Positions 2,016 through 49,228 are shown, numbered from the stretch's first letter. The stretch: 64,000 nucleotides of DNA from Planctomycetia bacterium (GCA_005772955.1 SXID01000149.1:22594-86593); one strand, 5' to 3'. The notes: generated by a model from the sequence alone, not told the origin. A program made the numbers and translations.

Positions 2016-4418
2016 CTAACGCGCAGACAGTTCCTTCGCGGTGTCGCTGAGTTTCTTCAGGTCGAGTTTGCCGCTACCGAGAACGGGCATCGCGTCCACC
2101 GGGTAACAATCACGGCGGTCCGGTACCCACAGATTCGGGATGCCTCGCTTCGAGAGAGCGCCCAGCAACTCCGGGAGTTTCGCCGCGATTTCGGGGAGGT
2201 ACAGCACCACAAGCCGCTCACCGCGTTTCTCGTCCGGCACCGCTGCCACAGCGAGGACGCGGTCGCCTCCGGTCGCAAGCAATTCGTGCATCTCATCATC
2301 GAGTTTTTCAAGCGGCACCATCTCCCCCGCGATCTTCGCGAACCGCGACAGCCGCCCAGTGATTCGCGCGAATCCGTTCGCCTCGATCAACCCCATGTCA
2401 CCGGTGTTGTACCAGCCGTCGCGAATCACGGTCGCGGTCTTCTGCGGTTGGTTCAGGTAGCCGCTCATCACGTTCGGCCCCTTCGCGCACAACACGCCCT
2501 CCACGCCGACCGGCAGCGGTTCCATCGTGTCGGCGTCGAACGCCTTCACGCACACGCCGAAGATCGGCTGACCGATGGTGCCGCGTGTGTTCCGCTGTTG
2601 CGGCATCCCGCCGACGTTCACGTCCGGCATGTTACACGACACAACCGGCGACAGTTCGGTGCAGCCATACCCTTCGAGCGGCAACACGCCGAACTTCTCG
2701 CGGAACTCATCCTGGAGTTTCACCGGCAGCTTTTCCGCGCCGCAGATGATGAGCCGCAGTGTGCGGAAGTCGTCAGGCCCACACCGGCGCATGTAGAAGC
2801 GGAGAAACGTCGCGGTCGCGGCCATCACCGTAGCGCGGTTCGTGCGTGCGATCTCGCCCACCTCCTTCGACTGTCGCGGATCGGGGAAATACACCGCGGT
2901 ACACGGCGAGTTCATCGGCACCCACAGACACACCGTGTACCCGAAACTATGGAAGAACGGGAGGATGCCAAACAGCACCTCGCCCGGCACCACCTCGAGC
3001 GTGCGCACCGACGCGTCCGTGTTCGCGGCGATGTTCCGGTGCGTGAGCACCACGCCTTTTGGCTCGCCCGTGCTGCCGCTGCTGAACACGATGGTAAGCA
3101 CATCGTCGAGCCGGTGCCGGTGTAACCCTAGACAGAACCGGTCAATGGCCCAACCGGGCAACATAAGAACGAGAAGGAAGGTGCGGATACGCTCCCACTT
3201 TGTGACGCCTTCGAGCGCGTCCTCGAGGTATACAACGGTGACGCCCTCAGGCAGCTCGATCGGAAAGCGGTTGGCGAACCGCTTGGCGGTGATGACGAAC
3301 CGCATGCCAGCCTGCTGGATCGCAGAGCGCACCGCCGCGGGACCGGCGGTGTAGTTCAGATTCACGGACGCCTTGCCCAGAAACGCGGCAGCGATGTTCG
3401 CGAGCGCGCCGCCCAACCCCGTTGGGAGCCAGATACCGACGTTCGGCGCGTCGCCTACGCGCGAGCGCAGGTATCGCGTGATGCACAGCGCGCCGACAAG
3501 GAGCTTCGCCCACGAGAGCGTGCGCGGCGGGCTGTTGGGGTGATTGTCCACGATTGCCGGTTTGAACAGACGACGGAACTTCGACGCGACCCGCACGAAC
3601 CGCCGATGCACTGGCAGCAGGTGTGCGCTTTCGAGGATGGAGAGATCCGCGGTCGCTTCCTGCACCGCGAGGCGCAGGTTGGCGGCGCGGGGCGAAGAAC
3701 CTCTCCCCCCAACCCCCTCCCCTAAGAAGGGAGGGGGAGTAAGTCCTGCTCCCCTTCCCTTCTTAGGGGAGGGGGTTGGGGGGAGAGGTCTCTTCGCTTC
3801 CCCAAACAGCACGCTGACGCGCGGCCGGAACGCCTTCGGCCACTTCCGTAAGATCGGCCCGTTTCCATGACTGAAGAAACCGGTCCACAGCCCCGCGGTG
3901 CAAGCGGGAATCACCGGCATCGCGGTCGTTGTCATCTTCAGGATGCGCTCGACTCCGCGTCCGAACGGCAGCATGTTCCCGGCTCGCGTGAGAGCGCCTT
4001 CGGGGAACATCACCACCACACGCCCCGCGTCCAGCGCCGCCGCGATCTGCTTCAAACTGTCGTTGACCGCGTGCGCGTGCGTGATGCGGTCGGTGATACG
4101 AACCGTGTTGTGCCTCGCCCAGGACAGGAAGAACCGCAACACCGGGTTCCGGTAGTACATCCCCCACAGCACGAACGTGACCGATCGCGGGCACGCGACC
4201 CAGAACACCAGCCAGTCGATGTAACTCACGTGGTTCGCAACGATCAGCACGCCGCCGGTCGCGGGGACGCGGTCGCGGTGATACACCGTGAACCGGTACA
4301 GCACACGTGCGACAACCCACAACACCGGCCGTAGCAGTGCCGGGAACAGCCACGTCAGCCCGAGGAGAACGAAGAATATCCCAAGGAACACGAGGACAAC
4401 GTCAACCAGTTCAAACAT
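2016..4418 (-). CDS. aas: Aas-like bifunctional lysophospholipid acyltransferase / acyl-ACP synthetase (AMP-binding)
   Basis: NHVSYID and FPEG acyltransferase motifs; FSSGSTGEPKG, YGCTE and TGD AMP-binding motifs. Carries an in-frame repeat insertion. Confidence 0.85.
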   Translation of the reverse strand: MFELVDVVLVFLGIFFVLLGLTWLFPALLRPVLWVVARVLYRFTVYHRDRVPATGGVLIVANHVSYIDWLVFWVACPRSVTFVLWGMYYRNPVLRFFLSWARHNTVRITDRITHAHAVNDSLKQIAAALDAGRVVVMFPEGALTRAGNMLPFGRGVERILKMTTTAMPVIPACTAGLWTGFFSHGNGPILRKWPKAFRPRVSVLFGEAKRPLPPTPSPKKGRGAGLTPPPFLGEGVGGRGSSPRAANLRLAVQEATADLSILESAHLLPVHRRFVRVASKFRRLFKPAIVDNHPNSPPRTLSWAKLLVGALCITRYLRSRVGDAPNVGIWLPTGLGGALANIAAAFLGKASVNLNYTAGPAAVRSAIQQAGMRFVITAKRFANRFPIELPEGVTVVYLEDALEGVTKWERIRTFLLVLMLPGWAIDRFCLGLHRHRLDDVLTIVFSSGSTGEPKGVVLTHRNIAANTDASVRTLEVVPGEVLFGILPFFHSFGYTVCLWVPMNSPCTAVYFPDPRQSKEVGEIARTNRATVMAATATFLRFYMRRCGPDDFRTLRLIICGAEKLPVKLQDEFREKFGVLPLEGYGCTELSPVVSCNMPDVNVGGMPQQRNTRGTIGQPIFGVCVKAFDADTMEPLPVGVEGVLCAKGPNVMSGYLNQPQKTATVIRDGWYNTGDMGLIEANGFARITGRLSRFAKIAGEMVPLEKLDDEMHELLATGGDRVLAVAAVPDEKRGERLVVLYLPEIAAKLPELLGALSKRGIPNLWVPDRRDCYPVDAMPVLGSGKLDLKKLSDTAKELSAR
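3699..3789. repeat. Palindromic element inserted in frame in aas
   Basis: 41-bp arms (40/41 complementary) with a 9-nt loop; encodes RPLPPTPSPKKGRGAGLTPPPFLGEGVGGRG. Confidence 0.95.
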
Positions 4419-5055: not shown

Positions 5056-5175
5056 GGGGCGTTTCAAAGTAGTAGGCACACTCCGTGTGCCGTTGTTACG
5101 TGAGTCAGAACCGCCAAACGTTCTTGAGTTGCGAAGCGACGGCACACGGAGTGTGCTGCTACTTTGAAACGCCCC
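5056..5175. repeat. 120-bp inverted-repeat element (REPIN/MITE-like) built from GTAG-type REPs
   Basis: Ends GGGGCGTTTCAAAGTAG / CTACTTTGAAACGCCCC; inner GTAGGCACAC-TCC-GTGTGCC hairpin and its near reverse complement. Confidence 0.85.
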
Positions 5176-5282: not shown

Positions 5283-7532
5283 GTGAGTACAACCCCAACC
5301 ACCGCGCCCACCCCACAATCTTCCGGTGGTGGCGACGCCGCCCGGACCAAGTACGCACGCCAGATCGAAGACGCCTTCGAGTCAGCCGGGAAACTGGCCG
5401 GCTCTGCGCTGGCACCCACCGACTTCTACCAGCAGTTCCTGAACCGCACGCTTTCGGCCATCGACGCGCCCGCAGGCGCCGTGTGGCTCCGCACGCCGCA
5501 AGGCTTCCTGCAACTCGCGTGTCAGGAGAACATCGACAAGGTTGGACTGGACGCGCGCCGCGGCGCGCGTCAGTGCCACAACGAGGTGCTGCGACAGGTG
5601 TTCCAGGCCGCGCCGCCGCGCCCGGTGCTGTTGGAGCCGAACGGGCGCATGGCCCCCGGTCCCGGCGAACCTGGGCCTGTTCCGCCCGCCAACCTCACCG
5701 ACCACTTCACGCTCTTCGCCCCGATTGTTACGCCCGACAAGCAGGCGCTCGGCATCCTCGAAATCTTCCAGGATGCCACACACGACCCGCGCCTGTACCC
5801 CACCTTCTTGAACTACACGTTCCAGATGGCCGGGTACGCGAGCCAGTACCACAGTTTCAGCAACGCCCGCATCGCGGCCGGCGTCGAGAAGACGTACGCG
5901 CAAGTCGAATCATTCGCTCGACAGATCCACAGCAGTTTGAACCCCACCGAGGTGGCGTACCACGTCGCCAATGAGGGACGTAAACTGATCGAGTGCGACC
6001 GATTGTGCGTCGGGATTCGCCACGACCGCTACCGCGTCACCGTCGAATCGGTCAGCGGGGCCGATGTGGTCGAGAAGGCCAGCACACACGTCCGCTCGCT
6101 GCGCCGGCTCATGGAAGCCGTGTTGCAGTGGGGCGAACCGCTCACGTTCAAGGGCGAGAAGGATCCCGGGTTGCCCGCGGCTGTCGCTCACGCGCTCGAC
6201 GACTACCTGCACGAGAGCCAGCCGAAGTTGCTCATCGTGCAGCCGACGCGCGACGAGCGCGAGAAAGACATGACCAAGCCGGCCCGCGCCATACTGGTCA
6301 TGGAGTGCTTCAACCCACCAGAACAAACCGAACCGCTGCTCCAACGGCTCGACGTGGTGACCAAGCACGCGGCACCGGCGCTGTACAACGCGGCCGAACT
6401 CAAGCGTGTCCCGCTCAAGTTCCTGTGGTGGCCGATCGCCAGGGTTCAGGAGGGTCTCGGCGGCAAGCGGCGGTTCATCGCCGCGTCGATCGCGCTACTG
6501 GTCGCGGTGCTTGTGGGCGTGATGGCTGCGCCGCCGTCGATCCCCCCGTTCGGCGCCCAGTTGAGAATGGAGGCGAAGGGCCAGATGCTGCCCGTCGAAA
6601 TCGCCAAGATCTTCCCGCCACGCGAAGGTGTGGTGAAGGAGGTCCGCGCCAAGCCGGGCCAGCAGGTCGATCCCAACTTTGAACTCGTCGCCTTGTACAG
6701 TGAGTCGCTAGCCGACGAGTACAACCGGGCGCGGAGCGAGTGGAACGAACAGAGCAGTTTCGTGTCTGAATACACGAAACAGCTCCAAACCAACCTGAGC
6801 AAGGAAGACCGGAACCGCGTCTCGGCCGACAAGACCGTTGCTGAGGGCCGAAGCAAGAAGGCACAGGGCGACATGGAGGCGCTCGACCAACAGTACAACA
6901 AGGTGAACAACAAGCCGAACAGCAAGGGCCAGGCAAACAATTCCGGCCCCGGCCACTTCCGCGCCATTGCGCCGGACTTCGACACCAGACTTGCACGCGA
7001 ACTCGGCCGCTCGCGATGGACCGTGCTCAACGACGACCGACGCGAGAGCCTGCTCGGGCGAACCATGCGACCCAACGAGGAGATGCTTCGCATCGGCAAC
7101 CTCGAAGGCGCGTGGCACATCGAACTGAAGATCCCGCAGCGCAATGTCGGGCAGGTGCTCAGAGCCTTCGCGGACCCGAAGAAGCACCTGATCAACAAAG
7201 ACCCGGTGAAGGGCGACCGCAAGTTCCTCGACGTGGATGTGCTATTGTCGAGTCAGACGGACACGAGTTATACGGGCCGTCTGTACCGCGATGACATCGC
7301 CGCCGAAGCGGTGCCCAACAAGAACGAGCACGACGAGAACGAACCGGTCGTGACCGCCTACGTGAAGTTGAACGTGAAGGGGATCGACGAAAGCCGGTGG
7401 GTGCCGCGGAACCACTTCATCACCGGACTTGAGGTTCGCACCCGGATCCGCTGCGGCGAACACGCACTCGGCTACACGCTCTTCCACGGCGTCTGGGAGT
7501 GGTTCTACGAGAAGGTCGTGTTCTTCTTCTAA
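5283..7532 (+). CDS. GAF-domain protein fused to an HlyD/membrane-fusion-like adaptor module
   Basis: N-terminal GAF-like regions (AGAVWLRTPQG; ECDRLCVG), one TM helix, biotinyl-lipoyl-like 'GVVKEV..KPGQQV', coiled coil, beta-barrel 'WHIELKIPQRNVGQV'. Confidence 0.75.
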   Translation: MSTTPTTAPTPQSSGGGDAARTKYARQIEDAFESAGKLAGSALAPTDFYQQFLNRTLSAIDAPAGAVWLRTPQGFLQLACQENIDKVGLDARRGARQCHNEVLRQVFQAAPPRPVLLEPNGRMAPGPGEPGPVPPANLTDHFTLFAPIVTPDKQALGILEIFQDATHDPRLYPTFLNYTFQMAGYASQYHSFSNARIAAGVEKTYAQVESFARQIHSSLNPTEVAYHVANEGRKLIECDRLCVGIRHDRYRVTVESVSGADVVEKASTHVRSLRRLMEAVLQWGEPLTFKGEKDPGLPAAVAHALDDYLHESQPKLLIVQPTRDEREKDMTKPARAILVMECFNPPEQTEPLLQRLDVVTKHAAPALYNAAELKRVPLKFLWWPIARVQEGLGGKRRFIAASIALLVAVLVGVMAAPPSIPPFGAQLRMEAKGQMLPVEIAKIFPPREGVVKEVRAKPGQQVDPNFELVALYSESLADEYNRARSEWNEQSSFVSEYTKQLQTNLSKEDRNRVSADKTVAEGRSKKAQGDMEALDQQYNKVNNKPNSKGQANNSGPGHFRAIAPDFDTRLARELGRSRWTVLNDDRRESLLGRTMRPNEEMLRIGNLEGAWHIELKIPQRNVGQVLRAFADPKKHLINKDPVKGDRKFLDVDVLLSSQTDTSYTGRLYRDDIAAEAVPNKNEHDENEPVVTAYVKLNVKGIDESRWVPRNHFITGLEVRTRIRCGEHALGYTLFHGVWEWFYEKVVFFF

Positions 7533-7622
7533 GTTGCGAGGTGTGAGGTGCGAGGTGCGAGTTGAAAGCACAAAACCGGCGATTGCTTTCACCTCGCAGT
7601 TCGCAACTCTGAACTCGCAACT
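7532..7622. repeat. Heptamer-periodic inverted repeat
   Basis: AGTTGCG AGGTGTG AGGTGCG AGGTGCG ... CGCAGTT CGCAACT CTGAACT CGCAACT directly after the stop codon. Confidence 0.8.
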
Positions 7623-7719
7623 TCCCCAAAGTCCCGCCTCCCAGCGGCCGGCGAGCGCCGGACCCCGGTGGCACCCACGCTACAACCCCTCGTCCCCTTT
7701 TTGACTAGAGGACAACGTC

Positions 7720-9786
7720 ATGCGCTCGCGTGTACTCGCGTTCTGGTGCCTTCCGACCGTACTCGCCGCCCTGCTCATCGGCTGCGGACCCAAACCCAAC
7801 CCGACAGGCGACAAGCCCGGCACCCCCGAACTCGCCGTCCCGGTCAAGACTGGTAGCCCGCTGTACGCGGCGGCTGCGCCGCTGACGTACGAGGCGCAGG
7901 CCGCGAGCGGCGAACCGTTGGTGATCCCGAACTGCGTCGTACAGTATGAGGAACGGCAAATCGTTTCGGCCGAGGTGGACGGCACCATCGAATTATTCGC
8001 CACCGGGTTCAAGCCCGGCGAGTACGAGAAACTGACTGACGCGCAGAAACGCGAGTGGGTCATCTACCACCCGCGTGACCCAAACCCGAAGAATCCGACC
8101 CCCCTGAAGCGAATCCGCGAGAGTATGCCCGTCGATGCGCGGCAGGTGGTCGCGTTCATGGACGACCAACTCGTCCAGGCGCGCCTCGACGGAGCGCAGA
8201 AGATCAAGGACTCGGCGATCAAGGCCAAGGAGAACGCCACTACGGGGGCGAATGCTGCCAAGAAGAAATACGAGATCACCTTGAAGGTGTACGGCGACCA
8301 ACTCACCAAGGAGGTACTCGACGACCTCATCACGCTCAGCCGGTTCCTTGAGAACCTCGACCAGGCGACCCAGCAGATCGCGAAGTCCGAGGCGGACTAC
8401 AAGGAAGCACAAGTGTTGATCGGCCGGCACCAGGTCAAGAGCGGCGTGGACGGCACCATTCGCACCATCTCCAAACGCCCCGGCGAGTATGTGAAGGCCG
8501 GCGAGAAGATCATGGAAATCGAGGGCACCGACAAGGTGCGGATCGAGGGCCAGATCGACGTTCAGTACTTCGCGCAAGTGCGCGAACACATGCAGAACAA
8601 CAAGGACGTGATTATCGAGCCGGCGCTGCCGAGTGCGCCGGAAGCATCGCACACGGGACACCGTCAAGCGGTCACCGGCGTCGCGGTCACCGCGCACCCG
8701 GACGGCCCGCTTGTCGTTTCCGCTGGTGCCGACGGCGGCGCGCTGGTGTGGGATCCGAACCTGGGTAAGAAACCGAACCGCCCGGCGGTTCCGCACAATC
8801 TGCCGCACCCGGTCGGCGTGAAGTGCGTTGCCGCGACGCCCGCGACCTCGAAAGCCTCACTCATCATCACAGGGGCCGACGACGGCAAAGTCCGCATTTG
8901 GGACGTGTCGAACCGCGACAAACTCCCAACGACACCGAGAGCGGAACCGGACGACGCGCACGCGTCCGCGGTTCAGGCAGTCGCGATTAGCCCGGATGGA
9001 CGGCACTTCGCCACCGCCGCTGGGCGCGACGTGTTCGTGTGGGAAGTCGCGACCGCGAAGAAACTCTATTCGCTTGCGCTGGAACACCGCGACTCGGTCA
9101 CGTCCGTGAGTTTCACCCCCCAAAACACGCTCATCACCGCGTCGAAGGACGGCACCGTCAAGGTGTGGAAACTCGGCACCGAACAGGCTGCCGTGGTTCG
9201 CACGCTCGACCACCGGGCCGGGGCCATCGACGTGCTCGGCGTCAGCCGCGACGGCGCGCGTATGCTCTTCGACCAGGACAAGGCCCGCGTGGACTTGGTT
9301 GATCCGGCGACCGGGCAGACTGTGGGGCAGATCCAGAACGGCGGCTCGGCCGGTTCGTTCTCCACATTTGCCGTGTTTGGCCCCGACGAGGTGGCGCCTG
9401 GTACTGATGCGGCGAAGGTGCCTTACACCATCGCAACGGCTGGCGGCGACGGCGACCTCAAAGGCGCTCTCCAAGTGTGGCAATCGCCCCGCACCGGCGG
9501 GCGCGGAGCGGAAGTGGGACGGCTCATCACCCCCAACCGCACGCCGGTAACGGCTATTGCGTTCAGCCCGGTTCGTGGCGAGCAGTTCCTCGTGGTCGGC
9601 ACCAGCGCCGGCTCCGTTCACCTGTGGAAGCCCCCGACCCAGGCGCCCAAGGCGTACAAGGGACGGATCGTGAACATCGACGCGGCCGACACCAAGTACG
9701 TCACGGTTCGCGTCGAGATGGACAACCGGGAACTCCGGCTCCTTGACCACAGCATCGCCAACGTCATCATCGCTTCGGAGAAGTAG
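7720..9786 (+). CDS. Lipoprotein HlyD-family periplasmic adaptor with an internal WD40 propeller
   Basis: Lipobox LLIGC; 'VSAEVDGTI' and 'VKSGVDGTI...PGEYVKAGE' lipoyl halves around a coiled coil; about seven WD40 repeats ending WD/WE/WK. Confidence 0.8.
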   Translation: MRSRVLAFWCLPTVLAALLIGCGPKPNPTGDKPGTPELAVPVKTGSPLYAAAAPLTYEAQAASGEPLVIPNCVVQYEERQIVSAEVDGTIELFATGFKPGEYEKLTDAQKREWVIYHPRDPNPKNPTPLKRIRESMPVDARQVVAFMDDQLVQARLDGAQKIKDSAIKAKENATTGANAAKKKYEITLKVYGDQLTKEVLDDLITLSRFLENLDQATQQIAKSEADYKEAQVLIGRHQVKSGVDGTIRTISKRPGEYVKAGEKIMEIEGTDKVRIEGQIDVQYFAQVREHMQNNKDVIIEPALPSAPEASHTGHRQAVTGVAVTAHPDGPLVVSAGADGGALVWDPNLGKKPNRPAVPHNLPHPVGVKCVAATPATSKASLIITGADDGKVRIWDVSNRDKLPTTPRAEPDDAHASAVQAVAISPDGRHFATAAGRDVFVWEVATAKKLYSLALEHRDSVTSVSFTPQNTLITASKDGTVKVWKLGTEQAAVVRTLDHRAGAIDVLGVSRDGARMLFDQDKARVDLVDPATGQTVGQIQNGGSAGSFSTFAVFGPDEVAPGTDAAKVPYTIATAGGDGDLKGALQVWQSPRTGGRGAEVGRLITPNRTPVTAIAFSPVRGEQFLVVGTSAGSVHLWKPPTQAPKAYKGRIVNIDAADTKYVTVRVEMDNRELRLLDHSIANVIIASEK

Positions 9787-38040: not shown

Positions 38041-38088
38041 CAGGTCTCAAGTCGAAGACAGATACCTCGGTCTTCGACTTGAGACCTG
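38041..38088. terminator. 19-bp perfect stem between convergent genes
   Basis: CAGGTCTCAAGTCGAAGAC / GTCTTCGACTTGAGACCTG. Confidence 0.65.
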
Positions 38089-40617: not shown

Positions 40618-40686
40618 GTGTCACAGACATTCCTGTCTGTGCTGGTATGCGACACGGAGCAGCACAGACAAGAATGTCTGTGCCAC
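40618..40686. repeat. Inverted REP-like pair in the gatC-gatA spacer
   Basis: GTGTCACAGACATTCCTGTCTGTGCTG / CAGCACAGACAAGAATGTCTGTGCCAC. Confidence 0.8.
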
Positions 40687-41021: not shown

Positions 41022-41123
41022 GATTTTTCTCGTTACGAAGAAGCCGCTTGCAGATTCGCGAGTGCGCCCCGGCGCGGAACTCGCGAAGCCGCAAGCGGCT
41101 TCAAACGGCCAGGCTGGGTTGTC

Positions 41124-43040
41124 TTACGACGCCTTCGCGACTTCGGCCGCGCGGCTCTCACGCACCAGTGTCACCAGCGCGTCCACGCTCAGCCCGATGT
41201 CGGCCAGCAGTTCGCCGCGTTCGCCGTGTTCGATGAACTTGTCGGGGATGCCGCGACGCACCACGTTCCGCGTATCGAGACCGACTGCGTTGGCAGCTTC
41301 AAGCACCGCGGACCCAAAGCCGCCTTCGAGCGTACCTTCCTCGACCGTTACCACAAGCGGGAGCGTTTCGATCGCGCGGAACATCGTCTCTTGGTCGAGC
41401 GGCTTCACGAACCGGGCATTGATCACGCCGATGTGAATGCCTTCCGCCTTCAGTTTCTTCGCGGCCGCGGTGCAGTTTGAAAGCAACGTGCCGAACGCGA
41501 TGAAACAGCCATCTTCGCCCCAGTCGATGACTTCCGCCTTGCCCATCTCGATTGGTGTAGACGGTTCGGAGCGTTCAATCTTCTCCAGATTCGTCTTCGG
41601 GTACCGCATCGAGATCGGCCCGGTGTGTTTGAGCGCGAACTTCAGCATCGGCCCGACGTCCGTCTCGTCGCCGGGCGCCATGCTCACCATGTTCGGGAAC
41701 AGCCGCATGTACGGGATGTCGAACACCCCGTGGTGAGTCGGTCCGTCCGGCCCGGTCAGACCGGCGCGGTCCATCAAGAATGTGACGTGCAGGTTCTGGA
41801 GGCACACTTCCTGGAAGATCTGATCGAAACTGCGCTGCAGGAACGTGCTGTAGATATCCACCACGGGGTTCGCGCCGGCCTTCGCCATGCCCGCCGCGAA
41901 CGCGACCGCGTGGCTCTCGCAGATGCCGACGTCGTGGAATCGGTCCGGGAAGTCCTCGCGGATCTTTTCGAGCTTGTTGCCCTGGCACATCGCGGCCGTC
42001 ATCACCGCGACCGTCGGGTCGTCCTGCATCGCCTGGTGCAGCGCGAAACTGATCGCGTCGGTGTAACCCTTCGCCCCGCCCTTCTTGAAGGAGACGATGG
42101 CGCGGTCCGGCCCAACCTCGGCGAACACCGGCGGTGTGTGGTACGTGACCGGGTCTTCGGCTGCCTGCGGGACACCGTGCCCCTTGTTCGTGAACACGTG
42201 CAGCAGGATCGGACCTTCTTGCGTCTTCAGATCGCGTAGAATCTTCCGCAAACCGACGAGGTCGTGACCGTCTACCGGGCCGAAATACCGGAAGCCGAGT
42301 TCCTCGAACAGCATCCCGTCTTTGAAGAACGCTTTCATCCCATCGCGGAACTGCTCAAGTGCGGAGTGAGCCATACCCCCTATTACCGGAATGTTGTTCA
42401 GGAGTTGGTTCAGTCGGCGTTTGCTGCCCTGATAGAGGCCCGTCATGCGGCACTGGTCGAAGTACTTGCCCACGCCGCCGGTTCGCGGGCAGATGGACAT
42501 CTTGTTGTCGTTGAGGATGACCAGTGTGTTCTGGTTCATCCCGCCGATGTTGTTGAGCGCCTCGAACACGATGCCTGACGGGAACGCACCATCGCCGATC
42601 ACCGCGACCGCGTGGTTATCTTTGCGGCCCATCAACTCGTCGCCGGCCTTGAGTCCCGACGCGGTGGAAACGCTACAACCCGCGTGGCCGGTCATGAACA
42701 GGTCGTACTCGCTCTCTCCCGGATGGGGGAACCCCATCAACCCGCCCTTTGTGCGGATCGTATGGAACTTGTCGTAGCGGCCGGTGATGAGTTTCTGCGG
42801 GTAGATCTGATGGCCCGTGTCCCAGATGAGCCGGTCCTTGTTCTTCGAGAAGTCGAAGGTAAGGTGCAGCGCCATGCACAGTTCGACCACGCCAAGGTTG
42901 CTGGCGAAGTGCGCGGGGCGATTGGTGAGTACCCTGATCAGTTCATCGCGGATCTCATGCGAAAGCCCCAACAGTTGCTCGTCCGAGAGTTTCTGCAGGT
43001 CAGTTGGGGATGCAATCTGCGACAACTGGTTCGTCGTCAT
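41124..43040 (-). CDS. dxs: 1-deoxy-D-xylulose-5-phosphate synthase
   Basis: HFASNLG.VEL, WDTGHQ.Y, GDGA...NDN TPP motif, DVGICE.HAV, DRAG..G.DG.TH. Confidence 0.97.
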   Translation of the reverse strand: MTTNQLSQIASPTDLQKLSDEQLLGLSHEIRDELIRVLTNRPAHFASNLGVVELCMALHLTFDFSKNKDRLIWDTGHQIYPQKLITGRYDKFHTIRTKGGLMGFPHPGESEYDLFMTGHAGCSVSTASGLKAGDELMGRKDNHAVAVIGDGAFPSGIVFEALNNIGGMNQNTLVILNDNKMSICPRTGGVGKYFDQCRMTGLYQGSKRRLNQLLNNIPVIGGMAHSALEQFRDGMKAFFKDGMLFEELGFRYFGPVDGHDLVGLRKILRDLKTQEGPILLHVFTNKGHGVPQAAEDPVTYHTPPVFAEVGPDRAIVSFKKGGAKGYTDAISFALHQAMQDDPTVAVMTAAMCQGNKLEKIREDFPDRFHDVGICESHAVAFAAGMAKAGANPVVDIYSTFLQRSFDQIFQEVCLQNLHVTFLMDRAGLTGPDGPTHHGVFDIPYMRLFPNMVSMAPGDETDVGPMLKFALKHTGPISMRYPKTNLEKIERSEPSTPIEMGKAEVIDWGEDGCFIAFGTLLSNCTAAAKKLKAEGIHIGVINARFVKPLDQETMFRAIETLPLVVTVEEGTLEGGFGSAVLEAANAVGLDTRNVVRRGIPDKFIEHGERGELLADIGLSVDALVTLVRESRAAEVAKAS

Positions 43041-43065: not shown

Positions 43066-43136
43066 AGTCGCGAGTAACGAGGAAAGACAACGGTCCGCTT
43101 GTTTCTCCCGTCACTCGTTACTCGTCACTTACTTCT
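43066..43136. repeat. Heptamer-periodic inverted repeat
   Basis: AGTCGCG AGTAACG ... CGTCACT CGTTACT CGTCACT. Confidence 0.7.
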
Positions 43137-44259
43137 CCCGTGTCACCACGTACCGGGCCAGGTCCGCGAGCAGCGTGCTACCGAGTTGTCCGGCGGCCGC
43201 GACCGCGTGTTGGCCCAGTTCCTCTGCCCTTCTCCGCGATTCCTCAACGCCAAGGAGTCCGGGGTAGGTCATTTTCCCGCGAGCGGCGTCTTTGCCCACC
43301 CGCTTGCCGACTTTATCAGCCGTACTTTCGACATCTAACAAGTCGTCCGTCACCTGGAACGCCAACCCGAACGCCGCGGCGTAGTCATCGGCTGCTTGCA
43401 GTGCCTTCGGGTCGGCTCCCGCGGGTCGCTCGGCTTGTGCCGCGTAAACTCCGAGTCGCAGCGACGAGCGGAACAGCGCGCCCGTTTTGCGGGCGTGGAT
43501 GTTTTCAAGCAGACCTCTCTCCCCAACCCCCTCCCCTAAGAAGGGAGGGGGAGAAAGACAACCTCTGGCTTGCGCTCGCGGTTCTTCGGAAGGTGCGGCT
43601 CCAGCCGCACCGCAGGCTCCCCCTCCCTTCTTAGGGGAGGGGATTGGGGGGAGAGGTTCTGCGCTCAACCGCCCCTCGGCTTCGAGGTCGAGCGTTTGCC
43701 CACCGACCATCCCAACCGCCCCGGAACCGCGAGCCAACTCTACACAACTAACCGCAGCGGTCCGCGCCGGGTAACTCGTTCCGATCACTTCAAACGCGGC
43801 TGTCAGCAGCGCGTCGCCCGCGAGAATCGCCAGTGCCTCGCTGAACTTCTTGTGGCACGTCGGCTGTCCGCGTCGGAGGTCGTCGTCGTCCATCGCCGGC
43901 AGGGCGTCATGAATCAGCGAGTATGTGTGAATCATTTCCACCGCACATGCGGATGGCAACGCCAACTCCAACGAGCCGCCCGTTGCTTCGCACGCCAACA
44001 CCACCAACAACGGGCGGAGTCGCTTGCCCGGTGAGAACAGGCTGTACGCCATCGCGTCGGCCAATATTGGGGGCGCGTCCGCAGCCACCTGCGCCAGGGC
44101 CGCACGCAGCGCCTGTTCCACACGGTCCTGACGCGGCTTCAAGGCTTCCAGTAACGAACCGGACCCAGACCCGGCGAAGCCCAAAGATGCAGTATTACAG
44201 ACTTTGCATTGCAAAGCCACCCGACTTTGGGCTTCATCGGTAATTGATCCCGGTGTCAT
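43129..44259 (-). CDS. ispA: Polyprenyl (farnesyl) diphosphate synthase
   Basis: GKRLRP, HDALPAMDDDDLRRG, GQ.LDL, KTG, FQVTDDLLD; xseB-ispA-dxs order; ATGA overlap with xseB. Carries an in-frame repeat. Confidence 0.9.
   Translation of the reverse strand: MTPGSITDEAQSRVALQCKVCNTASLGFAGSGSGSLLEALKPRQDRVEQALRAALAQVAADAPPILADAMAYSLFSPGKRLRPLLVVLACEATGGSLELALPSACAVEMIHTYSLIHDALPAMDDDDLRRGQPTCHKKFSEALAILAGDALLTAAFEVIGTSYPARTAAVSCVELARGSGAVGMVGGQTLDLEAEGRLSAEPLPPIPSPKKGGGACGAAGAAPSEEPRAQARGCLSPPPFLGEGVGERGLLENIHARKTGALFRSSLRLGVYAAQAERPAGADPKALQAADDYAAAFGLAFQVTDDLLDVESTADKVGKRVGKDAARGKMTYPGLLGVEESRRRAEELGQHAVAAAGQLGSTLLADLARYVVTREK
43513..43657. repeat. Palindromic element inserted in frame in ispA
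   Basis: 41-bp arms (39/41 complementary; left arm 40/41 identical to the aas copy) around a 63-nt spacer. Confidence 0.95.
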
Positions 44260-44672: not shown

Positions 44673-45941
44673 CTAAACGGGATCCTGTTCTTCGTTGGCG
44701 CCTTGCGCCAGGTTTCCGTTCGTCCCAGTAACGAGCGAGCGAATCACCCCAGAAGCGACGCGCGTGACGAGTACGTCGCCCGGTCGCAGTGCGGCGGTGT
44801 CGCGAACGAGTTGGCCATCGTTCGTGTGCGTCAAACTATAACCACGGGCGAGAACCTGCAAGGGGCTAAGCGTCTCCAGTTGGGCCGAACGCGACGCGAG
44901 TTCTTGTGCAACCTGAACGAGGCGTTGCTTTGCGGCGCGAGCGAGGCGCTCGCAAGTCTCATCGAGGCGCTGTCCGAGGTCGTTGATCCGCTGGAGTGGA
45001 AGCCGGATCGCGGGTCGCGTTGCGAACTGTTCGAGGCGTTGCTTCGCGAGCTTGATTCTGCGCTCGGCCGCGTCGCCCATGCGGGTTCGCAAATCGCGCA
45101 GCGACGCGAGCAGTTCCTGCCGGTCAGGCGTGAGCGCGACGACCGCAGCCGTCGGCGTTTCAGCGCGGTGGTCCGCGACGAGGTCGGCAATCGTCACGTC
45201 AATCTCATGACCGACGGCCGACACCACCGGCACGTTCGAGTTGAAGATCGCGTCCGCGACTGACTCCTCGTTGAATGCCCACAGATCCTCTGTGCTGCCG
45301 CCACCGCGCCCGAGGATGATCACGTCGAACGAGAGCTTGTTGTTCCGGTGTAGCCAGTTGAGTTGCCGCACCGCGAGCGAGATGTCGTGCGCGGCGCCTT
45401 CGCCCTGCACACGCGATGGCCGCACGATGAGTTCCGTGAACGGCCAGCGTTGCGCGAACACTTCGATCATGTCGCGAATCGCGGCGCCGGTTGCGCTTGC
45501 GACAAGCCCCACGCGCTGCGGCGGTCGCGGAAGTGCCCGCTTGCGTGCCTGACTGAAGTAGCCCTTCGCGAGCAACTTCTCTTTCAGTTGTCGGAGTGCG
45601 AGTTCCGCAGCCCCGACACCCTTCGGTTGCATCTCCTCGACGATGAACTGATATTCGCCTCGCGGGTCGTAAACGGTGAGCCGCCCGCGGGCGATGATTT
45701 CCATGCCGTTGCGCAAGTCGAACCGGAGCCGCAGGTTGATACCGCGGAACGCGACCGTCTTGATCTGCGCGCCGTCGTCCTTGAGCGTGAAATACCAGTG
45801 CCCACTGGACGCGCGTGTGAAGTTCGACACTTCGCCCGCGACCCACACGGACAGGAACTTCCCTTCGAGTGTGCCTCGCACCTGTGCGGTGAGTTGCGAC
45901 ACCGAGAGCGGTGTAACGGCAGTTTTGGGGACGGCGCTCAT
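44673..45941 (-). CDS. xseA: Exodeoxyribonuclease VII large subunit
   Basis: VWV.GEVSN, SGHWYFTLKD, RGGGS.EDLWAFN, AVGHE.D.TIAD.VAD.RA.TPTAA. Confidence 0.97.
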   Translation of the reverse strand: MSAVPKTAVTPLSVSQLTAQVRGTLEGKFLSVWVAGEVSNFTRASSGHWYFTLKDDGAQIKTVAFRGINLRLRFDLRNGMEIIARGRLTVYDPRGEYQFIVEEMQPKGVGAAELALRQLKEKLLAKGYFSQARKRALPRPPQRVGLVASATGAAIRDMIEVFAQRWPFTELIVRPSRVQGEGAAHDISLAVRQLNWLHRNNKLSFDVIILGRGGGSTEDLWAFNEESVADAIFNSNVPVVSAVGHEIDVTIADLVADHRAETPTAAVVALTPDRQELLASLRDLRTRMGDAAERRIKLAKQRLEQFATRPAIRLPLQRINDLGQRLDETCERLARAAKQRLVQVAQELASRSAQLETLSPLQVLARGYSLTHTNDGQLVRDTAALRPGDVLVTRVASGVIRSLVTGTNGNLAQGANEEQDPV

Positions 45942-47377
45942 TACGGTGCGCGCACGAGGTAAATGGGATCACCCTGCTGATCGTGCATACAGCATAACAA
46001 TCCGAGGTGGCTGAACGCAGCGCGATCTTCCCACTCTTGGCGAATCAGGAGAGCGAACGCGCCCGATGGTAGCGACCGCACGTCGGTGAGACGCAGCGCG
46101 GGCCGAGCGTAGTAGAACATCACGCCTTCGTCCTTCAACTTGAATACGTGCAGTGGTTGACCGGTTGGGACGCGAGCGCGGAGCGCTGCGCCGGTGGCTT
46201 CCGCGTTGCGGCCCTCCGCGCGCTGTGGAATGACGACTTCCACGAACACGATCTTTGCAATGAACCAACACAAAAGGAAGGCGAGGACGAAAGGCAACCT
46301 ACCCCCCCAACCCCCCTCCCTGAAGGGAGGGGGGGTTGGGGGGGTAGGTCTCTTCAGCAACCCCATTACACCGAGTCCCATCAGCCCGGCGCTCATGGGC
46401 AGTGCATAGCGTATGTTGTGGTTTGGCACGAGCGTCCAGAAGAACAGGTTCGGCCAGGTCCAGCAGTGAAGCAATTGGAGGAGTAACTTCCCACGATCGT
46501 CCCATTGCTTCCAGAAGGTCGGCCGCAGCGTGAGCATCGCGAACGCGGACACGGGAAGGTGCGCTGCGAACACGCTGAGCGGGTACGTCGCGAGTTCCGC
46601 CCACGGATAGCCCTTGCTCGCCTTCGGCGCGAACCGGTACGCGGCCTCCTTGCGGAGCGTGTCCGCGAGCGCGTCCCAGCCGACTTGTTGCACAACGGCG
46701 AATGCCCACAGCGCGCACGTGGCGCACGCGACGCTGACAGCGAGTAGGTGCCGCCAGCCGAAGAGCAGCGCGAGTTGACGCCGCCACGCGAGCAACGGAA
46801 TCACCGTGAGGTAGAAGAACGCGGGCGCGGTCCACTTCGTCAGCGTGCCACCCGCGACACAGAGCAACGACGTTATCCAGAATCCCAGAGCCGCGCGCCC
46901 TTCGCTTTCGAGCGCGCGGTGAAACAGCATGATCGCGGCCGTGACCCAGCCCACGAGCGTCATGTCGATTTCCGCGCTCGGCACCTTGTCGAGCCACAGC
47001 ACCGAACACGGTAGCAACACCGCGACCAGCAACGCGGCCTTCTCACCCAGGACGCGGCGGAACATGCCGTACATCAGCACAACGCTGAGTGTCGCGGCAA
47101 ATATTGAAGGGAGACGTGCGCTCGCGGCGCTCACTTCGCCGAACAGCAGGCTGCACAGCGCGACCGCAACGTAGTGACCAGGCGGTTTCGTCAGGAACGG
47201 TTCGCCATACAGCACCGGATACAGCCATTGTCCTTCGAGGCACGATCGGCCGATGATCGCCCGTAGCGATTCCGTGCGATACAGCGGACCAGCCGCGACG
47301 CCGTACAGAAAGAGAAACGCGCACCACCCCGCGACGAACACCGGCATGAACCGCATCGCGCGAAACCTGGGGCGCAA
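45941..47377 (-). CDS. ArnT/PMT-family membrane glycosyltransferase
   Basis: TKPP, ARLPS, EID, LTKW, many TM helices, RY.LP. Carries an in-frame repeat. Confidence 0.85.
   Translation of the reverse strand: MRPRFRAMRFMPVFVAGWCAFLFLYGVAAGPLYRTESLRAIIGRSCLEGQWLYPVLYGEPFLTKPPGHYVAVALCSLLFGEVSAASARLPSIFAATLSVVLMYGMFRRVLGEKAALLVAVLLPCSVLWLDKVPSAEIDMTLVGWVTAAIMLFHRALESEGRAALGFWITSLLCVAGGTLTKWTAPAFFYLTVIPLLAWRRQLALLFGWRHLLAVSVACATCALWAFAVVQQVGWDALADTLRKEAAYRFAPKASKGYPWAELATYPLSVFAAHLPVSAFAMLTLRPTFWKQWDDRGKLLLQLLHCWTWPNLFFWTLVPNHNIRYALPMSAGLMGLGVMGLLKRPTPPTPPPFREGGWGGRLPFVLAFLLCWFIAKIVFVEVVIPQRAEGRNAEATGAALRARVPTGQPLHVFKLKDEGVMFYYARPALRLTDVRSLPSGAFALLIRQEWEDRAAFSHLGLLCCMHDQQGDPIYLVRAP
46297..46348. 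repeat. Short single-hairpin form of the palindromic element, in frame in the ArnT-like gene
   Basis: Perfect 24-bp stem ACCTACCCCCCCAACCCCCCTCCC-TGAA-reverse complement; encodes RPTPPTPPPFREGGWGGRL. Confidence 0.95.
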
Positions 47378-47428: not shown

Positions 47429-49228
47429 TTAAGCCGGCTTCCACCGCACCCACGTGACCACCACGCCAACCAGCCCGACGAGCCAGCACAGCGCGGGAAT
47501 CCAGTCACCGAGGGTCGCGTACAACGACCCCCGCCCGTCGATCGGCACCACCGCGGTTACCACCGCGTCCACCTTCTTCGACTTGCTCCAATCGGGATCG
47601 GGCAGCGCGATCACGCGGCCATCGGAGTCGATCACACCGGAGATGCCCATGTTCACGCTACGCACCACGGACCGCCTCGCTTCGACCGCACGGAACCGGC
47701 AGATCGCGAGGTGCTGTTCGTGTTCTTCGGTGCCGTCGAACCAGCCGTCGTTGGAGATGTTCACGAGGAAGCTGACCGGTTCGGTCCGAACGTACTGCCG
47801 CGCGAGGTACGGGTCGGTGTCCTCGTAGCAGGTGAGGCACCCGAAGGTGAAGTTACGTCTGTCGCGTGTCGTGAGTTGGAACCGCGTCCAGTTCTCACCG
47901 ACGCGGCACTCGTAACCCTTCTTGTAGGGCGTGAACCATCGCATGAACGGCAGGTATTCGCCGAGCGGCACGTACTCCCCGAACGGCACGAGGTGGATCT
48001 TGTCGTAGCGCCCGGCGGGCGCGCTGTAGTCAATAACGGGGTCGCCCGGCTTCCACAGTTCGTCCTTCGGTAGCGGCTTCACGAAGAACGCGGAGTTGTG
48101 TTTCCACACCCGCTCGCCGTCCCATTCCAGACCGTTCAACCCGAAGAGGGTCGGCGCTCCCCACTGGCGACCGAGGAACCAGTCCTGTGAGTAGACGCGG
48201 TGCCGCTGGAACGCCTCTGGCGAGTCTTCCGCGCTCGCGCCGGGCGCAATCTCGCACCAGTCCACCGGCTGGCACGTCTCCGGCCAGACGACGAGGTCCG
48301 GGATCGGGTTGCCGTTGAATGCCTCACGTTTCCGATCGTAGTTAATCGCCTGGTAATGCAAATCGCTGTACGACTTGAGGAGCCGGTCCGGGTCGTCCAT
48401 CTTGTCGCCCTGCGACAAGTTCCCTTGAAGCACCGCGACCAGCGGGCCACTCGCGAACGCCGGGTGTTCGAGGCGCCAGTAGCCGTAGCCGATGCTCGCA
48501 ACGAGTAGCACAAGAGCGAAGGCGAGACCTACCCCAACCCCCCTCCCTAAGAAGGAAGGGGGAGCAGGACTGTCGGTCGGATTTGGCCCCTCCCTTTTTA
48601 GGGGAGGGGTTGGGGAGGGGTTCGGCTCGGCTTCTTCCCACCGCAGCGCGCGTCGCACTCCGCCCGCTCGGAACACCACTTCCGCGAGCGCACCGTTTAC
48701 CGCACTGACAACGAACGATACCGCGTACACGCCACCCACGTCCGCGATCTGGATGAGCGGCACGATTGCGTGCTGTGTGTACCCGAGGTAGTACCAGCCG
48801 AAGCCGATCATCTGGTACGCGCCGATGTGCTTCATGAACGGGAAGCCGGTCGGGAAGTGCATCCGGCAGTACTCGAACGCAACCCACGCGACCGGCACCG
48901 CGAGCGCCAGCGGCACGCCCAGGCGGTCCAGACGCCGCAGAACGGCGAGCGAGCCGAGCCAGTACACCGGCATCACGACCGCGAGACCGATCCACGACAT
49001 GACCATCATTGGGTGCGCGACGCGAATCCACTTCGCCGCGAGCGCGAAGAACACCACGCCCCCGACATAGGCTGCAAAGTACCGCCGCCGGTTCGACACC
49101 GGTGCGCGCACAAGCGTCAGCCAGGGGATGAGCGCGACGAACCCGAGCGGCCCGAGGTTCAGTGGGAAGAACGCCATCCACAGCAGCACGCCAGAGGCGA
49201 TCGCGGGTAGGAACACGCGAGGCTTCAC
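47429..49228 (-). CDS. lnt: Apolipoprotein N-acyltransferase
   Basis: WPET, YDKIHLVPFGEY, TCYED (E-K-C triad), NISNDGWF. GTG 49228 preferred to ATG 49315, which lies in a repeat. Confidence 0.95.
   Translation of the reverse strand: MKPRVFLPAIASGVLLWMAFFPLNLGPLGFVALIPWLTLVRAPVSNRRRYFAAYVGGVVFFALAAKWIRVAHPMMVMSWIGLAVVMPVYWLGSLAVLRRLDRLGVPLALAVPVAWVAFEYCRMHFPTGFPFMKHIGAYQMIGFGWYYLGYTQHAIVPLIQIADVGGVYAVSFVVSAVNGALAEVVFRAGGVRRALRWEEAEPNPSPTPPLKREGPNPTDSPAPPSFLGRGVGVGLAFALVLLVASIGYGYWRLEHPAFASGPLVAVLQGNLSQGDKMDDPDRLLKSYSDLHYQAINYDRKREAFNGNPIPDLVVWPETCQPVDWCEIAPGASAEDSPEAFQRHRVYSQDWFLGRQWGAPTLFGLNGLEWDGERVWKHNSAFFVKPLPKDELWKPGDPVIDYSAPAGRYDKIHLVPFGEYVPLGEYLPFMRWFTPYKKGYECRVGENWTRFQLTTRDRRNFTFGCLTCYEDTDPYLARQYVRTEPVSFLVNISNDGWFDGTEEHEQHLAICRFRAVEARRSVVRSVNMGISGVIDSDGRVIALPDPDWSKSKKVDAVVTAVVPIDGRGSLYATLGDWIPALCWLVGLVGVVVTWVRWKPA
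48527..48622. repeat. Palindromic element inserted in frame in lnt
   Basis: Arms nearly identical to the reverse complement of the intergenic copy at 32124-32244; encodes PNPSPTPPLKREGPNPTDSPAPPSFLGRGVGVG. Confidence 0.9.

Follow-up and report, generated by a model that had tools for sequence, protein, structure and literature searches.

The C-rich/G-rich palindromic repeats found in a 64-kb stretch of planctomycete DNA (hereafter the window) form one real repeat family, represented there by six clear copies plus a degenerate composite. Of these seven, four lie in frame within genes. We consider it likely that they belong to a multi-copy, non-coding palindromic family, distributed mainly in Gemmataceae and built of REP-like units, which is probably mobile in a non-autonomous manner and is tolerated in frame by its host genes.

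The existence of a single family, proposed in a preliminary description of this DNA, was borne out in two ways. The core motif occurs 18 times in the window (overlapping hits at six sites), compared with 0.24 occurrences expected from shuffles, and an nhmmer profile of the arm detected paired arms at 3698-3791, 32120-32244, 43511-43659, 46296-46351, 48525-48620 and 52427-52468, with no further significant match in the window. The unit, of approximately 40 nt, is composed of a tag (ACCT..CCCCCCAA) and a small hairpin (CCCCTCCCC-TAAGAA-GGGAGGGG). The arm consensus consists of the tag GAAGA-ACCT(A/C)(A/T)CCCCCC-NN followed by a C-run/G-run hairpin, CCCCCT(C/T)CCC-loop-GG(G/A)AGGGGG. ACCT and AGGT had been taken for the arm ends, which is incorrect, since the palindrome runs a few bases further (GAAGA-ACCT...AGGT-TCTTC). 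The units are arranged as inverted pairs with a variable spacer, collapsed single hairpins, solo arms or tandem arrays. The resulting palindromic elements, of about 50-150 bp, are present at many unrelated loci and fold as near-perfect hairpins (-57.9 kcal/mol, z = -11.9, for the aas copy). Their 41-nt arms share 95-100% identity among unrelated loci of the window, both coding and intergenic, and with more than 108 loci of other genomes. The copies of the window and their host genes are as follows.

2016-4418, minus strand: host gene 1, Aas-like acyltransferase and acyl-ACP/AMP ligase, 800 aa (Pfam Acyltransferase and AMP-binding)
3694-3797, minus strand: long-form element in aas (core ACCT..AGGT at 3699-3789, 91 nt)
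28819-28970, unstranded: composite with decayed outer arms of the family (ACCTACCCCCGGCCCC...GGGGGTAGGGT)
32118-32246, unstranded: intergenic long-form element, starting 3 nt past the stop of ORF 30094-32115
43129-44259, minus strand: host gene 2, polyprenyl (farnesyl/geranylgeranyl) diphosphate synthase, IspA-like, 376 aa (Pfam polyprenyl_synt, split in two)
43511-43660, minus strand: long-form element in ispA (core 43513-43657, 145 nt; spacer 63 nt)
45941-47377, minus strand: host gene 3, ArnT-like membrane glycosyltransferase (Pfam PMT_2)
46297-46349, minus strand: short-form element in the glycosyltransferase gene, a single 53-nt hairpin with a TGAA loop
47429-49315, minus strand: host gene 4, apolipoprotein N-acyltransferase Lnt (Pfam LNT_N and CN_hydrolase)
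48525-48624, minus strand: long-form element, more diverged, in frame in lnt
52425-52472, unstranded: intergenic short-form element with a TGAA loop, overlapping the TGA stop of the DUF188 gene 51979-52425

The claim that the repeats are inserted in frame in four housekeeping proteins was upheld, all four hosts being minus-strand ORFs with Pfam matches. The aas element, whose 41-nt arms are 98% complementary and separated by a 9-nt spacer, is placed in the linker that joins the acyltransferase domain to the AMP-binding domain and encodes KRPLPPTPSPKKGRGAGLTPPPFLGEGVGGRGSS. In ispA the element occupies a loop of the polyprenyl synthase, splitting the Pfam domain, and encodes EPLPPIPSPKKGGG...SPPPFLGEGVGERG. 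The glycosyltransferase copy lies in a loop between predicted membrane helices (encoding RPTPPTPPPFREGGWGGR); it corresponds to the long form present at the same site in a relative (L110), minus the centre. The lnt copy separates the LNT_N membrane domain from the next helix (encoding EPNPSPTPPLKREGPNPTDSPAPPSFLGRGVGVG). The inserted peptides (PLPPTPSPKKG...PPPFLGEGVGGRG and variants, 21-52 aa) are Pro-rich and then Gly-rich, as originally described. An AlphaFold model of IspA is confident except for residues 202-245, which form a coil (pLDDT<50) between two helices, suggesting that the insert is a disordered surface loop located where the fold tolerates insertion. Judging from the open frames, the in-frame copies should add floppy Pro/Gly loops to their hosts. 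The first ~30 codons of the Lnt ORF run through an unrelated intergenic palindrome (49256-49374); the true start is probably near 49230, as orthologs start with MKPRVFLP. As for the intergenic copies, the end of the element at 32118-32246 lies 13 nt ahead of the ATG of ORF 32259-34079. The composite at 28819-28970 had been regarded as a degenerate copy, which holds for its decayed outer pair; what lies between these arms is a palindrome of a different family (GAAGCCGCTCGCGGCTTCGCGAG, 28850-28918).

The reading-frame argument put forward earlier did not withstand inspection. The distance from ACCT to AGGT in the glycosyltransferase gene is 53 nt (46297-46349) and not 52 nt, and the lengths in aas, ispA and arnT (91, 145 and 53 nt) are 1, 1 and 2 mod 3, rather than uniformly 1 mod 3. 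Nor do these lengths suggest selection for frame, since the 1-mod-3 class predominates in intergenic copies too (8 of 14). Elsewhere, coding copies also fall into other length classes, and both of the frames that are open in an arm are read. The statement that the TAA frame is never used is trivial, as a coding copy needs an open frame anyway. All intragenic copies found are open and restore the host frame, a result which is partly circular, because frame-breaking copies would have been scored as intergenic.

The expectation of many copies elsewhere proved correct. We sampled 108 loci, mainly from Gemmataceae and other Planctomycetota, with 92 scorable copies, of which 34 (37%) are intragenic and in frame, the ORFs being validated by third-codon-position G+C (GC3). 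A Pfam match was obtained for 19 of the 20 hosts tested, which include aldehyde dehydrogenase, M16 peptidase, E2 acyltransferase, RsmB, SelB, MutL, AddB, GlnE, PKS, Mfd and CCA/poly(A) polymerase. According to Pfam coordinates, some inserts are located between domains (e.g. E2, MutL, Mfd), while others split a single domain (PMT_2, aldehyde dehydrogenase, PKS ketosynthase). The remaining copies mostly lie just past stop codons: among 28 intergenic copies, the stop codon was found 2-19 nt upstream of the element in 12 cases and inside it in another 12. The position 3' of genes would fit an intrinsic terminator; the tail is merely T-rich (GGTTCTTC), and terminator scan hits were not above those in shuffles. 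The profile tally amounted to 73 pairs and 71 solo arms. Individual loci showed tandem same-orientation arrays (one at L058 with a 62-nt period, and a less regular one at L063), a copy nested in another copy (L052) and a solo-arm remnant that is in frame (L113). In 29 of 53 elements the variable dinucleotide is identical between the two arms (12.4 expected). The copy number in the source metagenome appears to be high, because Logan contigs end at the elements and the summed depth over element bins is 3-27 times the baseline. Isolate genomes (Zavarzinella formosa, Gemmata sp. IIL30 and G. algarum) also have the same sites filled. Full-length matches, including the unforced tag, were detected in five Chloroflexota MAGs and one Armatimonadales MAG; these six come from different studies, several of the contigs are 110-487 kb long, and three of the MAGs have several positive contigs.

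Comparison of orthologous sites revealed that, for each of the four hosts, the insert is missing from distant orthologs, where the site holds just a short loop or linker (a single residue in the case of aas), which rules out an ancestral planctomycete linker, the explanation that the preliminary description had named as fatal to its own. Closer Gemmataceae relatives, including Gemmata obscuriglobus (with the same sites filled in its complete chromosome, CP042911), carry related elements of assorted subfamilies at the same sites. The idea that the four copies are recent private insertions was likewise rejected, as relatives at 73-89% protein identity are occupied at the same four sites. Within these sites the arms are 92% identical (304/331), compared with 82% (1986/2432) for 300 nt of flanking coding DNA (Fisher p = 1e-6), and the spacers vary in length and are unalignable. 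Many close orthologs lack the insert or hold a truncated remnant (P0005, P0012, P0018, L113, L114), the remnants also being in frame. No empty site differing from a filled one by the element alone was recovered in the ortholog comparisons, which makes the insertion event a putative one and the element ends approximate. A target-site duplication, a possibility raised earlier, was not visible either in the element flanks or in comparison with an empty ortholog; the flanks are inverted (GAAGA...TCTTC; AAGGCA...TGCCTT) and not direct.

We regard the family as a new relative, by kind, of the Rickettsia palindromic elements (RPE; Ogata et al. 2000 Science, summarised in PMC10969869 and PMC3733652) and of intragenic REPs. 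The analogy with RPE, drawn at the outset, holds in behaviour: both are short multi-copy palindromes without an associated transposase (here within the window and the sampled loci), a large share of which lie in frame in unrelated housekeeping genes that stay intact, adding a peptide at a fold-compatible position. In contrast to RPE, which reside in reduced, AT-rich genomes, the present family occupies the large genomes of free-living Planctomycetota with 63% G+C, encodes a disordered Pro/Gly loop, consists of REP-like units occurring solo and in tandem arrays, and has relatives in other phyla; its C-runs and G-runs are of unrelated composition, which makes homology unlikely. The architecture resembles that of REP/BIME/REPIN sequences, mobilised by RAYT transposases (Bertels & Rainey 2011 PMC3116915; Nunvar 2010 PMC2817692; Di Nocera 2013 PMC3733652): a 30-40 nt unit with a conserved tag and an imperfect hairpin, found as singlets, inverted doublets forming a long hairpin with a spacer, and tandem arrays (BIME), clustering just downstream of genes when intergenic, sometimes intragenic, and lacking a target duplication. 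The tag differs, however, being ACCT(A/C)(A/T)C6 and base-paired in the doublet, whereas the REP tag (GTAG or CGTC) is unpaired and 5' of the hairpin; only some copies contain GTAG (GGGGGTAGGT), where it is located 3'-terminally on the G-strand and is paired in the doublet. REPs have been reported inside ORFs of several species, named O. terrae, Thauera and others (PMC3733652), in variable number and mostly downstream of genes, and the 37% intragenic share observed here seems to exceed theirs. The family also crosses phyla, while REPIN-RAYT systems are reported to be vertically inherited, and no RAYT gene was found among the 47 genes of the window or in ORFs between arms at the sampled loci. 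Bacterial MITEs such as Correia/NEMIS, ERIC and Nezha (reviewed in PMC10969869) are likewise small, non-coding, multi-copy elements with terminal inverted repeats, at times fused in frame with ORFs; the present family differs from them in showing no visible target-site duplication and in its solo units and same-orientation arrays, which are not MITE-like, and the window and sampled loci yielded no parent insertion sequence whose ends match. A linked mobilising nuclease of the kind envisaged earlier (HUH/RAYT or DUF559-type), or any other transposase, was absent from the 47 genes of the 64-kb window, and none was detected between or beside the arms in ~0.9 Mb of sampled loci.

In the explanation that we favour, units are arranged in a REP-like manner, mostly as inverted doublets with a freely evolving spacer (REPIN-like), some solo and some in tandem arrays, and the short form could arise by deletion of the centre between the two sub-hairpins, themselves a pair of direct repeats. 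Mobilisation might be of the REP/RAYT-like or IS200/IS605-like single-strand type, rather than by a cut-and-paste TIR transposase, a conjecture based on the unit architecture. Copies landing behind stop codons may act as mRNA 3' ends or stabilisers, as such hairpins usually do. Each arm consists almost wholly of C or of G, and of its three frames just one contains a stop codon. A gene would therefore survive the arrival of a copy in a loop or inter-domain linker able to tolerate it, provided that the phase is open and preserves the frame; such a copy would be translated as a disordered Pro-rich then Gly-rich loop, and other landings would be purged by selection. An occupied site would then long stay occupied, while the spacer turns over, subfamilies replace one another and remnants decay in frame, the arms being kept uniform by gene conversion, re-insertion into existing copies or hairpin constraint. 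Besides the failure to recover an empty site, a target duplication or a transposase in the material sampled, two further points sit uneasily with this explanation: RNase III would be expected to cut a perfect RNA stem of 40-48 bp within a transcript, and REPIN-RAYT systems are described as strictly vertical in their inheritance, with which the copies in Chloroflexota and Armatimonadales are at odds.

A bolder version, which we put forward tentatively as a possible though not a probable one, is that of a phylum-crossing REP-like system with a novel mobiliser, which would maintain itself at sites already occupied, the copies there serving as targets for homing or conversion. Such homing or conversion would explain why the arms are more uniform than the surrounding essential genes while spacers and subfamilies are swapped.

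It is rather doubtful that the hairpins are kept for a host function as DNA or RNA, with mobility being secondary, although candidate roles can be named: a site for binding, a signal within mRNAs for RNase III or for translational pausing (from poly-Pro together with a strong hairpin), or useful flexible linkers. At orthologous sites the arms are better conserved than the neighbouring essential coding DNA while the spacer is free, the two arms co-vary, the same loops are occupied across genera and intergenic copies sit right at stop codons, as a host function would predict. However, many close orthologs fare well although their insert is absent or truncated to a remnant, the hosts are unrelated in function, and the subfamilies found at any one site vary in both sequence and reading frame, leaving no conserved peptide; gene conversion among many copies would account for the uniform arms too. 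Removal of the intragenic copies ahead of translation, whether by processing of the RNA or by programmed excision from the DNA, with proteins then lacking the peptide, is very unlikely. A very stable hairpin could serve as a processing substrate, which is not direct support, but open, frame-restoring copies and in-frame remnants would be needless if the copies were removed (with the partial circularity mentioned above), and an Rfam search of the window gave no family, intron or ribozyme signature. It is highly improbable that the Pro/Gly segments are old lineage-specific linkers expanded in place as low-complexity sequence, their likeness to the intergenic repeats being compositional: the sites are indeed natural linkers or loops, occupied in relatives too, but this view is contradicted by the near-identity of the arms in unrelated genes and intergenic copies, by the full palindromic architecture preserved within coding DNA, by the motif excess and by the short loops of distant orthologs. 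An assembly or binning artefact (repeats misjoined into genes, or contigs of other phyla misassigned) is scarcely credible, even though the window derives from a metagenome and short-read contigs break at the elements, because the same intragenic sites are filled in independent assemblies, including a complete chromosome, and in isolate genomes, and the non-planctomycete matches come from different studies, with long contigs and multiple positive contigs.

The analysis indicates that in-frame palindromic repeats, known from Rickettsia, recur in a new bacterial phylum. If the self-renewing version of our explanation is true, Gemmataceae would possess a permanent source, able to repair itself, of disordered loops, strong mRNA hairpins and poly-proline pauses, acting inside hundreds of core proteins, and some of the inserts would have been co-opted.

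The core motif of the C/G-run family of palindromic repeats, CCCTYCCY-N6-RGGRAGGG, occurs 18 times in the window (overlapping occurrences at six places), compared with 0.24 expected from dinucleotide shuffles of this DNA, whose G+C content is 63%. A search with a profile of twelve arms located paired arms at six places and gave no other significant match in the window:

3698-3791, minus strand, in an Aas-like acyltransferase plus AMP-binding enzyme; the insert sits between the two Pfam domains
32120-32244, intergenic
43511-43659, minus strand, in a polyprenyl synthase (IspA), where the insert divides the Pfam domain match into two parts
46296-46351, minus strand, in a PMT_2 glycosyltransferase, within a loop whose length varies among orthologs
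48525-48620, minus strand, in Lnt (LNT_N plus CN_hydrolase), after the LNT_N domain
52427-52468, intergenic

Four of the six arm pairs thus lie inside long minus-strand ORFs, and the Pfam identities bear out the preliminary description, in which in-frame copies were proposed for four housekeeping proteins. The inserted peptides are also as described there, with a Pro-rich half (PLPPTPSPKKG) followed by a Gly-rich half (PPPFLGEGVGGRG), and are 21 to 52 residues long. An AlphaFold model of the window IspA (36 homologs) has a confident synthase fold, in which residues 202-245, comprising most of the insert, form a coil (pLDDT below 50) between helices 184-194 and 247-275. From the reading frames we infer that the host proteins are translated through the inserts.

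The inserts add PPP and PPPF motifs to the host proteins, and motifs of this type need EF-P for efficient translation. An EF-P gene (EFP_N, EFP, Elong-fact-P_C) is located at 29308-29883, and its proximity to the elements is probably coincidental. At 49208-49315 the Lnt ORF opens with ~30 codons (LKNCILCCLLCALCAFVVKS...) that are read-through of an intergenic palindrome (49256-49374); since orthologs begin at MKPRVFLP, the gene probably starts in reality at the GTG near 49230. Residues 1-40 of IspA (44140-44259) form an N-terminal extension, MTPGSxTDDAQSRVALxxKV, which is conserved in many Gemmataceae orthologs, missing from some annotated ones, and modelled with a pLDDT around 30. In L110, a sampled locus of another genome, the start of the IspA gene and the end of xseB share 4 nt. 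Other window genes encode a full-length serpin (35142-36428), an HlyD-like plus WD40 fusion protein (7720-9786) and a WGR-domain plus leucine-rich-repeat protein (61701-63140).

Alignment of the arms defined a unit of ~40 nt, composed of a tag, ACCT(A/C)(A/T)CCCCCC plus a variable dinucleotide, and a small hairpin, CCCCCT(C/T)CCC-TAAGAA-GG(G/A)AGGGGG. The long form consists of two inverted units separated by a spacer (9-108 nt in the copies measured). The elements are predicted to fold into near-perfect single-strand hairpins (-57.9 kcal/mol for the aas copy and -60.9 kcal/mol for the ispA copy, both with z = -11.9). Each short form (the glycosyltransferase copy; 52425-52472) consists of one hairpin, with tag and stem paired directly about a TGAA loop. 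Sampled loci of other genomes revealed solo units, tandem arrays of units in the same orientation (with a period of 62 nt in L058, less regular in L063) and, in L052, one element nested within the spacer of another. The two sub-hairpins of the long form are direct repeats of each other, and the glycosyltransferase short form corresponds exactly to the L110 long form minus its centre; short forms therefore seem to be made by deletion between the sub-hairpins. The palindrome regularly runs a few bases past ACCT/AGGT (GAAGA before ACCT and TCTTC after AGGT; AAGGCA and TGCCTT in other subfamilies), so that ACCT and AGGT are not the true ends of the element.

The interval 28819-28970, earlier regarded as a degenerate copy, does contain a decayed outer pair of the C/G-run family, but this pair encloses a palindrome of a different family. 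In L111 (2800-2905), RTEEATASSLTP is duplicated in tandem within the spacer of the IspA element, and each copy contains a small hairpin of its own (GAAGAAGCAACAGCTTCTTC); it appears that smaller palindromes nest in this spacer. Strong palindromes of other families occupy window spacers at 1864-2013, 5056-5175, 7531-7623, 13385-13465, 15484-15561, 17717-17809, 21993-22045, 23409-23476, 28850-28918, 38041-38088, 40618-40686, 41040-41102, 49256-49374 and 53608-53666; these other families include GAAGCCGCTTGCGGCTTCGCGAG (three times) and the GCGAGGTGCGAGTTG type (twice). Among the listed window palindromes, only the C/G-run family is clearly well inside genes, and a few weaker palindromes (e.g. 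2309-2587 and 54677-54904) fall within coding ORFs.

The 23-nt core was found at no fewer than 108 loci when one genome per species was scanned. Among the matches listed, the carriers are isolates and MAGs of Gemmata, Zavarzinella and Frigoriglobus, other Planctomycetota MAGs and, outside this phylum, five Chloroflexota MAGs and one Armatimonadales MAG. The Chloroflexota and Armatimonadales copies also possess the tag (GACCTAACCCCC...GGGGTTAGGT), although it was not demanded by the search pattern; several of their contigs are 110-487 kb long, and three of these six MAGs have several positive contigs. In a Chloroflexia MAG (L044, 2067-3328) a Lyase_1 gene is broken into two ORFs that overlap, probably by a frameshift in a long-read assembly that has nothing to do with the element. 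The window derives from a freshwater metagenome in which short-read contigs are interrupted at the elements, and summing depth over the element bins gives 3 to 27 times the baseline value. This points to similar copies on the order of a hundred in the sample, not all of them necessarily in one genome. A search of Logan contigs for population variants without the element gave other repeat copies only and no deletion alleles.

Placement was scored, among the matches listed, for 92 elements with defined ends and away from contig ends, with coding calls based on G+C composition at each of the three codon positions in the adjoining sequence. Thirty-four of them (37%) lie inside a single coding ORF that reads through in frame. 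The proposal of a family resembling the Rickettsia palindromic elements (RPEs), inserted in frame in housekeeping proteins and in many of them, holds. Nineteen of the 20 intragenic host ORFs submitted to Pfam are recognisable proteins, with hosts including:

two aldehyde dehydrogenases
M16 peptidase
sulfatase
E2 acyltransferase, insert between the lipoyl and E3-binding domains
RsmB, SelB and AddB
MutL, insert between the mismatch-repair and C-terminal dimerisation domains
GlnE
polyketide synthase
Mfd
CCA/poly(A) polymerase
PSCyt/PSD1 proteins

One Hpt-domain protein (L050, 1-1509) has two separate in-frame copies, at residues 117-160 and 312-355. The other scored copies are intergenic. When these adjoin the 3' end of a gene (28 copies), a stop codon is found 2-19 nt upstream of the element in 12 cases and inside it in another 12, in some instances close to where the loop itself has its TAA. 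This placement would suit intrinsic terminators, but the tail behind the hairpin is no more than T-rich, and a consensus scan for terminators gave no more hits than shuffled sequence. The seven scorable copies from Chloroflexota, Armatimonadales and an unclassified MAG (L012) include no intragenic one, a sample too small to carry weight.

Each arm leaves two frames open and closes the remaining one with a stop codon (TAA for the left loop, TAG for the right), and the loop-to-loop distance modulo 3 sets which frames combine.

Loop-to-loop distance modulo 3 in 33 long forms with exact loops
Distance 1 (the class of the window aas and ispA copies): coding 13, intergenic 8
Distance 2: coding 6, intergenic 3
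Distance 0: coding 0, intergenic 3

Selection for frame had been inferred from element length, as the aas, ispA and glycosyltransferase copies were all thought to be 1 mod 3. This idea was rejected: the glycosyltransferase copy is 53 nt long (46297 to 46349) and not 52, and the 1-mod-3 class is the commonest among both coding and intergenic copies (8 of the 14 intergenic long forms). The predominance of this class therefore characterises the family itself and was not produced by selection in genes. The 1-mod-3 class in fact leaves only one of the three insertion phases open, and other open frames are used in other genomes (LSPQPPPLRREGE..., ...SPSLLRGGVGEG). Selection clearly removes copies that bring a stop codon or a frameshift.

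Distant orthologs of all four window hosts have a short loop without the insert (only ...KKG-LSAA... in the aas linker, ~10 residues in the ispA loop, and short loops also in lnt and the glycosyltransferase). The peptides are thus not an ancestral planctomycete linker, the condition under which the preliminary description would have been refuted. Nor are the inserts recent, because three relatives (L110, L111 and L112; 73-89% protein identity) carry an element at exactly the same junctions: they are old and turning over, not newly arrived. Across Gemmataceae the same loops hold different subfamilies in different frames (PTPQPPPCREGE...SPSLQGGGWGVG; PNPPTPFPKREGG...GKGVGGLG), and a TGAA-loop copy is present in the aas linker of the cultured, completely sequenced Gemmata obscuriglobus. 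The IspA loop of two orthologs (P0008 and P0015, one from Frigoriglobus tundricola) contains an unrelated repeat encoding ERGTRNEE...LRTPHSAL (alignment A1, columns 201-275), and hence the loop accepts several kinds of repeat. In L113 a truncated left arm alone remains, in frame. The dxs-gatC intergenic spacer carries the C/G-run family in the close relative L110 (13061-13170) and a different palindrome in the window (40900-41124); elements have evidently been replaced at this fixed site.

The 41-nt arms at orthologous sites are 92% identical (304/331), compared with 82% (1986/2432) for 300 nt of coding DNA on each side (Fisher p = 1e-6, the window ispA copy being counted in two of the four pairs), and for aas, together with the ispA comparison against L111, the arms match at 161 of 164 positions. 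Spacers at these sites differ in length and are unalignable. In 29 of 53 elements the two arms share their variable tag dinucleotide (12.4 expected under random pairing), with several dinucleotides represented. Together, these data indicate that uniformity is maintained in the arms, whereas the middle varies freely. Such uniformity might result from gene conversion among many copies, from re-insertion into occupied sites, or from constraint on the hairpin.

A linked mobilizing nuclease, envisaged in the preliminary description, was not found: Pfam searches detected no transposase or HUH nuclease among the 47 GC3-supported window genes or in ten ORFs between arms of the sampled loci. No target-site duplication was visible in 97 elements or relative to an empty ortholog, the flanks being inverted and not direct. 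Nor was a clean empty site found: all of the closest orthologs are either filled or hold remnants, with L109 and L113 falling short of clean empties and the divergence of L114 being too great to fix the ends. An Rfam gathering search of the window gave no matches. The solo units, the arrays and the lack of duplication make the unit architecture resemble that of REP/RAYT or IS200/IS605-type single-strand elements.

The arrangement of solo, inverted and tandem units is shared with REP/BIME/REPIN sequences rather than with classical MITEs. However, the C/G-run tag is neither GTAG nor CGTC, no RAYT was found among the window genes or the between-arm ORFs of the sampled loci, and the distribution crosses phyla, whereas REPIN-RAYT systems are reported to be vertically inherited. 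RPEs are described, in the accounts citing Ogata 2000 (PMC10969869, PMC3733652), as the classical palindromic repeats in frame in housekeeping genes, and Di Nocera et al. (PMC3733652) reported GTAG/CGTC REPs inside ORFs in several species, naming O. terrae, Thauera and others. We therefore describe the C/G-run family as working like REP/REPIN in layout and like RPE with respect to proteins, and file it in neither family. Searches by topic and by sequence string, in which subscription journals were mostly outside coverage, found no literature on such elements in Gemmata or other Planctomycetes.

In-frame palindromic repeats have so far been treated largely as a peculiarity of Rickettsia, with intragenic REPs scattered elsewhere. 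The C/G-run family shows the same behaviour, at a comparable or greater scale, in Planctomycetota that are free-living and have large genomes: roughly one in three sampled copies is intragenic, with MutL, Mfd, SelB, Lnt and IspA among the affected hosts. If this is confirmed, some of the length differences between orthologous proteins in this sample would be due to the family, Pro/Gly "linkers" and hypothetical peptides in these genomes would be flagged as derived from repeats, and the contig breaks in the short-read assemblies of the source metagenome would be explained. Arms better conserved than their host genes, loops reoccupied by different subfamilies and copies in other phyla all deserve follow-up, the last of these raising the separate question of horizontal spread of very small non-coding elements. 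As G. obscuriglobus is cultured and its genome complete, it should be possible to test in this organism how the elements move, how 40-48-bp perfect hairpins and PPP motifs are translated, and whether protein loops originate in this way.
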